This document shows positions 1,201 to 59,700 of a DNA stretch of 64,000 nt, one piece after another. Origin of the DNA: Octopus vulgaris (Eukaryota); the NCBI GenBank assembly GCA_951406725.2, contig OX597817.1, positions 36,642,001 through 36,706,000 on the forward strand, given 5' to 3'. The translations under genes were made by a program, and so were the position numbers. Each line of letters opens with the position of its first letter. Position 1 is the first letter of the stretch. The notes under the pieces were generated by a model. The model made no database searches and was not told the DNA's origin. It worked only from the letters and a program-made list of their open reading frames with translations.

Positions 1201-2025
1201 TCATACTTCCTTTTTCTAACTCATTCTTCATGGATGGACTAACACAAATATATAAGGATACCATGCATTCATCACTTCAAGCTAAAACTTATATTCTTTA
1301 AATATCATTATTATTATTGTTGTTATTATTACTATCATTTTTATTATATATGACATAACAATCTGAAATGTAATTATAAATTGGTTTATGCAAACTTACA
1401 AAATTGGAAAATAATATAAATAAAGTGTTAAAATCTGAATGTTAAGTTAACAAACAGTTATATAAAAAAGATAATGCAAATGAAGCTAAAATGATAATTT
1501 TATAATTTAAGGTTTATTAACACCCTTTATCACAAAAAATTGATAAACACAAATTGAAGAGCTCAAAACCCATAAAGTTGTCTCCCCTTATTCACAACAC
1601 AGGAACTGAAGAACTACAATTACTACTACTTCCTGTTTTGCCAACACCCTTAATTAAACTAAACAACACATGGCTTTAATCCCATTGGATCCTAATACTT
1701 CAAGGTAATTTTTTCGTGAACAATCATTAAACTCAAGATACACAAAGACTTCACAATGTATCGGAGTACTTATTTTTAATTTCTGTACATATTTATTATT
1801 ATTTTTTGGCAAAAAACAATATAATTTTCTTTTTTCCCCTTTCTCACTTTAATAAAAAAATTTTCCCTTTACAATTCTTGAAAAGTCACATTATGACGAA
1901 AACCGGTTTGAATTAATATATATTTATATTTTTTATCAATTTTTCAAAAACTTTTTCCATACACCCATTTGCATTAAAATTTTCTTTCAATTTAGCATTC
2001 TGCATTTTTACAATTTTTCCTTGCT
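1201..2025 (+). mobile_element. 3' UTR / pseudo-LTR of the Penelope-like element
   Basis: AT-rich region between the ORF stop and a (TA)n tract; contains an HHR-like motif at 1873-1914, as is typical of PLE pLTRs. Confidence 0.65.
1873..1914 (+). ncRNA. Minimal hammerhead-ribozyme-like motif (PLE type, variant core)
   Basis: aattc/gaatt stem I, CTTGAAAA variant core, gtca-catta-tgac stem II, GAAA, palindromic AACCGGTT in place of stem III. Confidence 0.6.
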
Positions 2026-2076
2026 ATATATATATATATATATATATATATATATATATATATATATATATATATA
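2026..2076. repeat. (TA)n microsatellite
   Basis: Pure TA run between the PLE 3' end and a SINE fragment. Confidence 0.98.
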
Positions 2077-2171
2077 GACGACGGGCTTCATGATACTTGC
2101 CCAAGCTGCCACGCTGTGGGACTGAACCCGGAACCATGTTGTTCGGAAGCAAGCTTCTTACGCCTGAGCCT
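2077..2171 (-). mobile_element. SINE family A, 5' fragment
   Basis: Reverse complement matches the head of the 16270 copy (...catggttccgggttcagtcccac...cttgggcaagt...gaagcccgtcg). Confidence 0.8.
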
Positions 2172-2967
2172 ATGTATATATATTAAAGATATATGTATAT
2201 ATATATATATATATATATATATATATATATATATTTATATATAAGCTTTCATAGTTTATGTCTACCAAATTCACTTACAAACCACTGGTTGGCCCAGGAT
2301 TATGTCAGATGATATTTGCTCAAGGTATCGCGTTGCTGAACTGAATATGAAACAACGTAATCGCAAAACGATCAAAAACCTAAACCTGGCTACATTCTTT
2401 TATTCTTGTATTTCTCGGAAATTTATTTGTAAGTTAACCTAATTGTAATAGCTACAAGCAAGAAATGAAACTATGCATAGAATTATTCGTGTCACATATA
2501 TTTGAGACATTGTTCAATGTAGCCATGCCATCTTTCAGACCACAAATAAGGGTGTGAGGAAGATTTAGTGGTTATTTCTTGTGCATATATGTATATATGC
2601 ATATAAGCACAGTGTCATTTGGTGGGAATTATTACTATAGACAACTAAATTTTAAGCATAAAACAAACTATTACATATAGATAAAATCAGATAATTTTCT
2701 ATTTATTTCTTACAACCAACGCATGAATACAATAAATTTCCCTCTGGTGATTCAATATTTATAGCAATTGTCTTCTAAACATATTAAAATATTCGTAAGT
2801 TTGAGTTTAAAACAAATCTATATTTCAGGATGCAACTTTTCAGTTTTAAGATTATCATTATTTATCTCGCTCTCGAATTATTTATTTCACCATAATTATA
2901 TATTTTGTAATGGGAAACACGTGTGAAAAAAACGACGATATATTTAAAACTTCACCACTCCACAAAC

Positions 2968-55626: not shown

Positions 55627-56386
55627 GCAAGGAGTGGCTGTGTGGTAAGTAGTTTGATTACGAACCACATGGCTCCGGGTTCAGTCCCATAGCGTGGCAC
55701 TTTGGGCAAGTGTCTTCTGCTATAGCTTCGAGCTGACCGAAGCCTTGTGAGTGGATTTGGTAGACGGAAACTGAAAGAAACCCGTCATATATATTATGAA
55801 TATATATATATGTGTGTGTGTGTGTCTGTGTGTGTGTGTGTATGTGTGTGTGTGTGTGCGCGTGCGCGTGTGTATGTTTGTCTATATGTTTGTGTGTCTG
55901 TGTTTGTCTCCCCAGTATCGCTTGAAAACCGATGCTTGTGCGTTTACGTCCCCGTAACTTAGCGGTTCGGCAAAGGAGACCGATGCAATAAGTACTTATC
56001 AACCACATGCTTCCGGGTTCAGTTCCACTGTGTGGCACCTTGGGCATGTGTCTTCTACTAAAGCCTCGGGCCGACCAAATCCTTGTGAGTGGATTTGGTA
56101 GACGGAAACTGAAAGAAGCCCGTCGTATATATGTATATATATATATGTATGTGTGTTTGTGTGTCTGTGTTTGTTCCCCCCCCCCTCCAACGTCGCTTGA
56201 CAACCGATGCTTGTGCGTTTACGTCCCCGTACCTTAGCGGTTCGGCAAAAGAGACCGATGCAATAAGTACTAGGCTTACAAACAATAAGTCCTGGGGTCG
56301 ATTTGTTCGACTAAAGGCGATGCTCCAGCATGGCCACAGTCAAATGACTGAAACAGGTAAAAGAGTAAAAAGAGAGAGTAAAGAGT
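55627..56386 (+). mobile_element. SINE family A head-to-tail dimer
   Basis: First unit runs to about 55997; the second starts within the head and ends with the gtaaaaga tail. Confidence 0.88.
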
Positions 56387-56539
56387 ATATAAGCAAACAA
56401 TAAAAGTCTATATATTGTTTTTAGAAAATCCATATATTTACATTTGAGAAAATTTTCTTGTAATATTTTTTTGCACATTCAAATTGAGTTCTCAATGAAT
56501 CAGAAAGTCTTGGATTTACGCAAAGTAAAATTATCTTTT

Positions 56540-56745
56540 ATCTTTTACACGTTTCAGTGATTTGAATGCGGCCATGCTGGGGCATCGACTTGGAGAATTT
56601 TAGTCAAACGAAACGACCCTGGGACTTAATATTTTTCTAAACCTGGTATTTATTCTGTCGGTTTCTTTTACCGCACCGCTGTGTTACGGGAGCGTAAACA
56701 CCCCAACACCGGTTGTCAACCAGTGGTAGTGGACAAACAGAGACA
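56540..56745 (-). mobile_element. SINE family A, degenerate 3' half
   Basis: gtttcagtgatttgaatgcggccatgctggggc...ccggttgtcaa. Confidence 0.7.
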
Positions 56746-59700
56746 ACCCTCTCAAAAAAATCCTCTCTTCAAAATTGATGGTTTTGTACCTAAATTAGAA
56801 ACTACTATTATTATTAATGTGTTTGGCTTTGATATTCATATCGACAGTTAAAGTAAAAAGCGCTACTAATCCAGAAATAGCCTTGTGAAGTCTGCATGAA
56901 AAAACAGAAATTGTTTCCACCTGTTCTTAACAACAAGGAATTAGCGGAATAAGATTGCAAAACCGTGGACAAAATAACAAAAAAGAGTACAATTTTGAAA
57001 GATAGGAATATCCAAAAAAATAATAGCTCTATTTGAGAGAAAAGGATTGTTAAGTGGAGAGCGGGATAAAAAAGGAAATGGTGAATGAGAGATCAATGGA
57101 AGTGTGATAAAAACAAATGTAAAATATATACGAACATTTATGAGATACGACGAAGACAAACAAGACAAATTAATAGAAAATGTGTGAGACAAGTATAAGA
57201 AAATCGTGTGATAGAATGGATAGAAACGTACTGAGTTATTATGAAGAAAGTGAGATGAAAGCGTTTGCTGAAGAGATTTAGAAAGAACGACATAATCATG
57301 ATATGAGACTAGAATTGTATTATGAAAAACTAAAGAGTCCGCCGGAAAGAAAGCGACTGAACACAACTGTAAGAAATGGACCGCTCACTGAAATGTATGG
57401 ACGGTGGTTGTATACAATGTAATTTAGAATATTTGGTCTTATATCTGATACCGACAATTTTACACTTGAGATGAATCCTAAAAAAATATATAATAAACAT
57501 ATCGACGATGATACTAACACAAGTTGATACTAACACAAGTACTAGTTTGTTTTATTGTTCTTTAAACTCTGTTTTTTCAACTTTAGTAAAAGTTCTGTTT
57601 GCAGAGCAATATATTTAGTATCACAGTTTTATTGCACATGGATGTGTTGGAAAATTATTTTTAGTTAATACATATAGCTCTAACTTATTATGGTAGCAAA
57701 ATATAGATGTGCGTTATCGGTTTACATGTTCTGTGCTTAATAACTGATGCTATCTGAAGTTAATAATACCTCTTATTATCGATTGGGAATATACCTGATC
57801 AGAATATGTCACATTATTGACCACACAACTCATTAGAATCTTATATTATTAGATATTTATCCGTTATTTAGCTCAGATCATTTATTTGAATTATGAACAG
57901 TTAATTAGCTTCTTGTGGACCATGAAAAATGACTTCTGTCAATCTTATGTACAATGTCAGTACTAATTAATAACCCTTGAGGTTTTCTAATCATCCAGTG
58001 TTTGAAATTCGATAGACAACGTTTAGCTGTCAGACGAGAAATTTGCGTGTATCGTAGTACAAATGGAGAAACTTACAGACAACTAAACCACTTGGAACAT
58101 TTGCGTGATAGGAAGATTCAGAAAGTTTGAGGCCAGCATTTATAAATATCAGTTTGGAATCGGAAATCTTATGTGAATTGTACTTCCTTTTTGATTTATC
58201 TTTGAAGACACTGAGTCGGCACTTCAGAGAAGAATGACTATTAACTTGACAGAATTGATATCAACATAATTTGCTCCAAAATAGACCAAAAGGATTGAGT
58301 GATATTTCATGGGAATAATTTGTATATAGTACTTCAATGACTGTCACTATTTTGAGATTATCTTTGGCTTATAAATTGTATTTAATCCCAAGTACTATTA
58401 AATTAAATATCGAATTGGATTACCAAATCAAGGACACTATTGACTTGAAATAATATGACCGCCTTTGTTTGTGTTTCAAAAATATAATGAAACACTTGTG
58501 TAAAGTGCACAATAAAGAAAACAAATACAATGTTTCACAAACGAGAGAGGGAACATTTAGCTAGTTGTTCGACTTGCTAGAAATATCAGACAAATTCTCT
58601 CAAACATACCCTACGTTCTTCCAAAAGGGCACATTGGAAAAATCGGGATGGCCATTACTGATGCTTTTGATCGTAGACCTGCTCTAAGCGAGTAAAGCAA
58701 TAACACACATACATATGCGCAAAAGTGGGTAAGTGAGTGAGTGAGAGAATGAGTGAGTGAGAGAGTGAATGAGAGACAGATCAGTAATGGGATGTAACTG
58801 AAGACAGAGGATAAGTGCGTGAGTGTCCTGCCTGACACGAGTCTCAGGCTCATCAGGCTCCCATTTACCAGTATGTACCCATTATAGGAGTTCCCAATAC
58901 CAAGCGATGTATAAATTGATACCTGTGGCTTGTGAAACAAAAGCTAGGATTTCTGTGTTCTGAAGTTCAAATCGCAATATCAGCTTTGCTTTCCTTCCTC
59001 GTCAAAAAAATACAGAGGTTTCTCACATTCTGTTTGCCCGTCCATTTTTCTGTTTGTAGCCCTCACATTCTCTTTCTCTCTCTCTCCTAGCTCTCTCTCC
59101 CTCTCTCTTCCAGAATACGTTACGTTACGCCGTGGGAAAGGTAACGGTGCAACATTCATAGCCTTCCATTGTATAGAAATGCAGCACAGATTTGACAGAA
59201 GAGAAGCTGCAATTGTAATTTTAGAGAGAGAAAAGCATGCCTGGAAACATTATATGCACTATATAGAAGGTGTGAATATGTATATAGAGGAACAACTAGC
59301 AACAACTTCAAAAGCCACCAGCGAAATTTCAGTGCATTATTTAGGAACCCCTACAACGGAATCGTCTAACCGATGCTTGGAAGAGACAACATGTATCATA
59401 TGATGAGGTCATCGCTAACAAGCACTCTAGAACTGTTAAAAAATATGAAGTGAACAGGGTGTAATGATATGTTGAAACAATTGTAGTGATTTGTAATACA
59501 ACTTGTTGAGTCCATCTTCTCTTATAAAAAATTTGTTTATATATATATATATATATATATATATATATATATATATATATATAGTGAGTGTGTGTGTGTG
59601 TGTGCGTGCATGAAAGCATGTGTTTATATATCATTTTTATTCAAGAAAAATAACTGTTTTCCTATCATATAGTGGTACTCTATACTCTCATTTCTTTATT

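Follow-up and report, generated by a model that had tools for sequence, protein, structure and literature searches.

Hammerhead-bearing segments of a 64-kb octopus locus as probable 3' ends of several Penelope-like families, one of them opening with a tRNA-like head

The stretch of Octopus vulgaris DNA analysed here (G000:C4:36642001-36706000, 64 kb, referred to as the window) belongs to a 2.8-Gb genome in which simple repeats are abundant, and carries a number of short segments which an initial annotation had interpreted as diverse hammerhead-bearing passengers of a Penelope-like element (PLE). Every segment named there was traced genome-wide, and the resulting families are designated E (segment at 1873), A (23143), G (23298), B (23868), D (43309), C (49217/49578) and F (16541). 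Most of the segments are very probably the 5'-truncated 3' ends, known as pseudo-long terminal repeats (pLTRs), of several distinct protein-coding PLEs, with their own hammerheads and likely their own reverse transcriptase (RT)-endonuclease (EN). The set represents the debris of several autonomous families and not a passenger system, and its architecture is already in print. In all DNA searches the best 40 candidates were taken, and the copy samples are therefore biased towards the query.

The evidence which carries this reading is that five of the seven families (E, D, C, B and A) are preceded, in their longer copies, by sequence coding for RT and/or GIY-YIG, so that the Penelope-like origin initially proposed was upheld. 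In family E, the coding sequence lies in the window itself, where positions 1-1200 (forward strand) hold a 5'-truncated PLE open reading frame (ORF) spanning RT thumb, linker and GIY-YIG domain (ORF translations; PF01541, E=1.2e-4), with a linker of the Neptune type by motif. It is followed by a 3' untranslated region (UTR)/pLTR (1201-2023, forward), delimited by comparison with other copies and ending at (TA)n, inside which a minimal type I hammerhead motif with U3-A8 core and palindromic stem III was located at 1873-1912 (forward). Other E copies are 92–97% identical and show many truncation points, 7 of 24 continuing into the RT up to the edge of the locus. In the window ORF, the frame is interrupted by a stop at 460-462, and the linker reads CARPNRGTC where other copies read CARPNCGTC, with the loss of a cysteine; because of both changes, this ORF cannot be the driver of the set. 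Immediately to the left of the window there is an inverted E pLTR piece, which carries a 47-nt tail (L068 5940-5986). On both sides of the E insertion, about 850 bp of sequence are duplicated in inverted orientation with 90% identity (window 2097-2949, L068 4440-5257); judged by its identity, this duplication would predate that insertion. Farther along, at 36831-37121, there is a decayed GIY-YIG remnant of another PLE, with 31% identity to the E protein.

Family D is represented by the 5'-truncated 3' end of a second Neptune-like PLE (43257-43497, reverse strand), which ends at (TA)n and includes a hammerhead at 43341. RT or GIY-YIG sequence was found upstream of it in 3 of 24 other loci (L121, L115 and L106, in the last as an inverted arm), and the clade assignment of D derives solely from the 43–64% identity of this sequence to E. 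In the case of family C (49188-49718), two pLTR ends are arranged head-to-head (49188-49648) and followed by a 70-nt tail on the right only, all within (TA)n. The window arms correspond to the inverted ends of long C copies of 2.6–5.7 kb, four out of seven of which contain RT and/or EN fragments, and the 70-nt tail occurs at exactly one end in all seven, as in the window. The 3' UTR of C extends over several kb, is dinucleotide-rich and contains F-like pieces with 83–94% identity (L061, L064, L066, L067). Beside this copy, a common short repeat is present as two inverted copies around a TA/CA tract (49836-49930 and 50030-50160). Finally, A (23014-23166, forward) was identified by copy comparison as a 3' UTR fragment of an old PLE, Hydra-type by its linker motif and with a short 5' inversion; an EN fragment was found upstream in 2 of 24 loci (L080, L093).

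Clade names in this work refer to linker motifs. According to the published key, Neptune linkers show CX2-5CxxC and Hydra linkers CxCX5C, while Penelope/Poseidon elements have none of these (PMC8557442). Here, E shows CX4CxxC, C and A show CxCX5C (C also CxxC and CxH) and B shows none, by which E appears Neptune-like, C and A Hydra-like and B Penelope/Poseidon-like.

In family B, the window copy is made up of a short inverted arm (23682-23703, reverse) joined at a native 12-nt palindrome (23697-23708), a tRNA-like head with A and B boxes (23704-23778, forward), nearest to tRNA-Arg among the tRNAs compared, and an (AAT)n tract followed by a decayed hammerhead at 23873 and a 3' end without tail (23779-23964, forward); the head was recognized by tRNA alignment and the remainder by copy comparison. 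Head, (AAT)n tract and hammerhead 3' end together form the pLTR of a Penelope/Poseidon-type element. The exact 33-nt tail of this family has 1942 genomic matches, which is a lower bound, as against 0 for the control, and the first 30 of these, all on C1, make up the tail-selected set. A fragment of the PLE ORF was found at one tail-selected locus and used as a query; in 27 of 29 other loci found with endonuclease DNA, B stands directly after the ORF and in the same direction, and 22 start with the head, which begins about 30 nt past the stop codon of the autonomous element. Moreover, a protein atlas placed the B and C pieces with HTH_animal/GIY-YIG clusters at 0.92–0.97, and contigs from sequencing runs joined the end of the ORF to the head in organisms A and B, and the UTR to the head in organism C, which is uninformative on expression. 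None of the 50 examined out of 150 GIY-YIG Pfam matches (30 top matches and 20 chosen for variety) carried B. The PLE beside the B copy at L027 possesses a different hammerhead of its own and is unrelated to B. Between G and B, at 23530-23680, there is a piece of another repeat, present also in L049 and L175.

This linkage bears on whether B could be an independent tRNA-derived short interspersed nuclear element (SINE) which borrows Penelope enzymes, a view suggested by the tail-selected copies, 23 of which are short and ORF-less while 7 keep ORF or UTR upstream. Nevertheless, the unit of head, (AAT)n, hammerhead and tail is native to the 3' end of the ORF-bearing element, and ORF-linked and head-start copies have variants in common and similar divergence (6.8% and 5.4%). 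A SINE separate from the PLE was thus rejected, and the independent origin, largely refuted by the ORF linkage, is considered unlikely.

The second line of evidence is provided by the hammerheads themselves. The descriptor employed, which was written and tuned once the window motifs were already known, required a core CUGANGA or UUGANAA, stems I and II of at least 3 pairs, GAAA, a palindromic or paired stem III and UH. It gave three matches in the window, 1878(+), 43341(-) and 49249(-), whereas 200 shuffles gave 0.06 on average and never more than 1. The first is a complete type I motif with a stem I of 5 bp and a stem II of 4 bp, the second is complete with a U3-A8 core, and the third is complete with a 4-bp stem III and a U.U mismatch at 10.1/11.1. 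Among the other sites for which a hammerhead-like arrangement had been claimed, 49587(+) is the mirror copy of 49249 with A6 changed to G, 23873(+) is decayed with respect to its family motif (A9 and bulge deleted, stem II mutated), 23298 holds half a motif, and 23143 and 58786 are not hammerheads, which leaves three intact sites out of the seven. With a looser pattern and exact core, there was 1 window match (23143) for a shuffle mean of 1.0, 26 of 40 shuffles reaching 1; with one core mismatch the window gave 36 matches for 20.6 in shuffled sequence, and with two mismatches 227 for 177.5, both above all 40 shuffles. A-runs, or additional PLE ends in a decayed state, may account for this surplus.

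Across copies, the motif defined by the descriptor was recovered in 16/24 of E, 20/24 of D, 26/28 of C and 18/24 of F; for B it was present in 23/29 best matches, in 8/30 of the tail set and in 6/29 of the ORF set. Five families thus keep the motif (core, stems I and II, GAAA, palindromic stem III and NUH site, as in minimal type I hammerheads), with stem sequences which differ by family yet pair within each, whereas 0/24 A loci, 0/11 G loci and 0/2 loci matching 58786 contained it, so that the family-level conservation expected at the outset applies to E, D, C, B and F. Position 10.1/11.1 is G-C in E and B, A-U or a bulge in D, U.U in C and F, and C.A or U.A in A and G. Coincidental matching in AT-rich repeats does account for 23143, with its single match for 1.0 expected, and for 58786, but the three full matches and the conservation of separately pairing stems refute it for E, D, C, B and F, and as a general explanation it has next to no probability. 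Single-strand folding predicted stem II for E, D and B, and in E, D, B and F the co-folding of two copies predicted that their palindromes pair with each other; hammerheads with a palindromic stem III would be expected to cut solely as dimers or with protein help. No hammerhead family appeared among the 150 of 237 Rfam matches listed for the window, nor in a good B copy, and therefore Rfam is blind to these motifs.

The two old families show a different arrangement. As families, A and G both contain a core, a long stem II, GAAA, an identical palindromic stem III and a stem I, with a core-to-GAAA spacing of 61 nt in A and 97 nt in G. In A, with 19 of 24 loci aligned, five stem I pairs are kept in 16–19 of the 19, and the core is CCGAUGA in 7 and CUGAUGA in 5; in G, with 11/11 loci, a CUGAUGA core is found in 6 aligned rows, eight stem II pairs are kept in 6–10 copies, and stem I has 2 bp. 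Both motifs may be regarded as hammerhead-like on these grounds. Neither is complete in the window. The long-stem motif of A starts about 20 nt past the window break, the copy ending just short of the core. The window copy of G (23166-23395, reverse, from copy comparison) is a 5'-truncated old repeat, in which 23298-23335 represents only the 3' half of the motif (3' strand of stem II, GAAA and palindrome) and ends before the core. The site at 23143 was rejected as a hammerhead, since the A majority reads UUGAUGA without GAAA and the window GAAA comes from the junction with another repeat, core and GAAA belonging to two different repeats. Likewise, the segment at 58786-58866 is a hairpin outside the system, with no GAAA after it; the search gave two other loci with 35-nt matches. 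In these two loci, L095 and L096, the hairpin (window 58826-58862) sits in a longer repeat of about 430 bp which they have in common.

As regards the mode of insertion, the hairpins or palindromes noted at 23014, 23682, 16541 and 49188 are present, and inverted 5' arms were seen in copies of B, C, D, E, F and A, as had been proposed. In B, two-armed insertions have the tail on one arm only in 17/18 and 16/17 of cases as counted here (one had neither and one had both), and direct repeats of at least 8 nt flank 8 of 16 two-armed insertions, as against 13 of 240 mismatched pairs; one of these repeats lies in a TA tract, and the window copy has none. One-sided tail and inverted arm also occur in the E and F window copies. 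Microsatellite targeting was supported for the linker-bearing families: 19 of 22 E copies have their 3' end at (TA)n, for a baseline of 4.4%, and C and D end in TA-rich tracts. Adjacency to (TA)n, initially attributed to most segments, was found for E, C, D, F and A and not for 58786 or B, which ends at (TA)n in 4/30 copies; its presence in linker-bearing families and not in B agrees with the published connection between Zn-finger linkers and (TA)n (PMC8557442). Inverted copies, one-sided tails and junction palindromes have been described for PLEs (PMC8557442, PMC3846280). In the element PAc, the tail marks two start sites of reverse transcription, a feature called PLE-unique (PMC11167929). 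On the basis of published PLE work, the endonuclease would nick both strands of AT-rich DNA, reverse transcription would begin at two nearby internal sites of the RNA, giving an arm with or without tail, and early termination would leave a short direct arm and an inverted arm.

Several observations weigh against the reading of the segments as ends of autonomous PLEs. Linker motifs, and not a tree, underlie the clade labels. Pfam gave no match for the B ORF piece and, for the C RT, only a weak match to RVT_1 (E=0.025), and single-strand folding did not recover the hammerhead fold of C and F. No PLE protein match was obtained in 24 F loci, and no ORF link in 11 other G loci. Within flanks of 1.5 kb, all copies were 5'-truncated and no full-length B with a 5' pLTR before the ORF was found, and none of the 30 tail-selected B copies have downstream sequence in common, except for one duplicated pair. 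Moreover, random truncation does not account for the 5' ends of B: in the tail-selected set, the 5'-most coordinate falls within -3 to +18 of the head in 13 copies, while 7 others begin farther upstream and 10 inside the unit, and in that 22-nt interval 0.7 would be expected from the downstream truncation rate, one coordinate having been set by hand and two loci being a duplicated pair.

One explanation of this accumulation would be that the short B copies are a built-in SINE, in which RNA polymerase III (Pol III) starts at the head and the short RNA is copied by the enzyme of the element itself. This is an appreciable possibility, if not the favoured one. A and B boxes are present in the majority sequence of 53 heads, which aligns end-to-end with genomic tRNA-Arg(TCG) and tRNA-Arg(TCT), with scores of 64 and 61, respectively, for shuffle maxima of 45–48; the comparison comprised 30 tRNA genes of six isotypes, which makes the isotype tentative. 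Several solo copies start at the head, and B has no TTTT run in 300 nt, while E has 12, D has 7 and C has 5. Nevertheless, B is T-poor overall (24%), ARAGORN detected a tRNA neither in the window nor in the majority sequence of the B head, and Rfam likewise calls no tRNA at the head. No fixed difference was found between 32 ORF-linked and 24 head-start copies, the lowest p value being 0.004, uncorrected, at a CpG site and in a sample partly biased by the query. In addition, 12 of the 13 insertions ending at the head have an inverted arm by BLAST, and the remaining one has a short arm by eye. The native 12-nt palindrome precedes the head in ORF-linked B and is the centre of many head-to-head junctions, including that of the window; because of these inverted arms and palindromic junctions, fold-back alone suffices for B, and self-priming at the native hairpin explains the pile-up equally well. 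The short copies would accumulate at the head either by Pol III starting there or by fold-back of the cDNA there, and since both yield the same DNA product, the sequence cannot decide between the two.

The remaining proposal holds that the segments are unrelated passengers, which their ribozymes excise and which a single shared PLE protein, such as the one encoded at 1-1200, copies in trans; it finds a candidate in F. The window copy consists of two short 3' pieces head-to-head with the tail on the left arm only (16452-16741, by comparison with the 561-bp unit), without a hammerhead of its own. The family unit measures 561 bp, is 96–100% identical among the loci found with it and has a longest reading frame of 123 aa; head-to-tail junctions were seen in 10 of 17 distinct insertions, with inverted arms and an 87-nt one-sided tail, and the arrays comprise about two units at most inside 3-kb loci. 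By its sequence, F, as a young tandem unit without ORF, would be the sole family to fit the class of non-LTR retrozymes, and is likely a non-autonomous tandem rider on PLE machinery. The lack of a detected ORF link in G also favours this proposal, and pLTR-mediated trans-mobilisation has been described (PMC3846280). For the set as a whole, however, it is improbable: five families have coding partners of their own, with three linker types, and the window ORF is broken. Furthermore, in an in vitro PLE system, the ribozyme needed protein and was dispensable for insertion, on which hammerhead mutants had no effect (PMC11167929). What stood of the initial annotation in this respect is therefore limited to F.

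Compared with described systems, the window families are like the EN-bearing PLEs (Penelope/Poseidon, Neptune and Hydra; PMC8557442, PMC3846280) in having an RT with C-terminal GIY-YIG domain, strong 5' truncation, an inverted 5' copy, a tail at one end, target duplications, a junction palindrome and, with a Zn-finger linker, (TA)n sites. They differ in that the B pLTR opens with a tRNA-like head, in tails of about 70 nt (C) and 87 nt (F) in place of the 30–40 nt described, and in the multi-kb dinucleotide-rich 3' UTR of C. The minimal type I hammerheads of PMC4209133 also possess a palindromic or tiny stem III, a bulge after A9 and a U3-A8 variant, and occur as solo motifs and as opposite-strand pairs 100–700 bp apart. 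Their G-C at 10.1/11.1 is given as conserved, whereas C and F (U.U) and A and G (C.A/U.A) deviate from it, and the long core-to-GAAA distances of A (61 nt) and G (97 nt) and the 4-bp stem III of C are further differences; partial hammerhead cores of possible relevance to A and G are listed in the supplements of PMC8557442. The non-LTR retrozymes, for which an origin as non-autonomous derivatives of PLEs has been proposed (bioRxiv 10.64898/2026.07.22.740005), are like F in their tandem non-coding type I units, within a range of 51–972 bp, and in a PLE-like insertion, but F arrays are short and the likeness is restricted to this family, since E, D, C, B and A do not fit. The SINE-like hammerhead repeats of schistosomes (reviewed in PMC6765202) combine, like B, a Pol III-type promoter with a hammerhead in a short repeat; they are tandem and non-coding, while B forms the terminal part of a protein-coding PLE and is dispersed singly or in head-to-head arrangement. 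In PAc, a Poseidon from Anolis, the hammerhead is also upstream of the tail and targets are AT-rich, although the available part of that report (PMC11167929) mentions no tRNA-like head. In the literature searched, which did not cover repeat databases, no tRNA-headed pLTR was found, and it may be that B corresponds to a repeat already named. Penelope families and, in the portion accessible, no ribozymes are mentioned in a recent annotation of octopus repeats (PMC13282606).

Other features were recorded in passing. A further PLE family (L172-L201) has many open frames of 781 aa and its own downstream U3-A8 hammerhead motif, and looks young; the stretch of it which was tested gave no match in the window. 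At 37774-38100 there is a near-palindromic TA/CA-rich unit duplicated head to tail, and 7420-7660 and 21358-21598 form an inverted repeat pair of 241 nt, 92% complementary and 13.7 kb apart.

The main pattern is already known and no new system is required. In repeat annotations, B may be classed among the SINEs, and C or F among foldbacks resembling miniature inverted-repeat transposable elements, whereas B and C represent ends of PLEs and F has a PLE-like mode of insertion. Tentatively, an autonomous Penelope/Poseidon element could have captured a tRNA-Arg-type Pol III promoter within the 3' UTR and so acquired a SINE of its own, a short RNA with hammerhead and priming tail of which its enzyme would have made thousands of copies, and with a native 5' hairpin regenerating head-to-head palindromes, alongside families whose hammerheads depart from the G10.1-C11.1 rule or have a stem II of 60–100 nt and so escape standard searches. 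If Pol III does drive B, this would be a SINE-type RNA mobilised by a Penelope enzyme while still embedded in its parent, and the origin of SINE-partner pairs would become testable in the existing in vitro PLE assay. If they cleave, the atypical hammerheads would broaden the descriptors used in genome searches.

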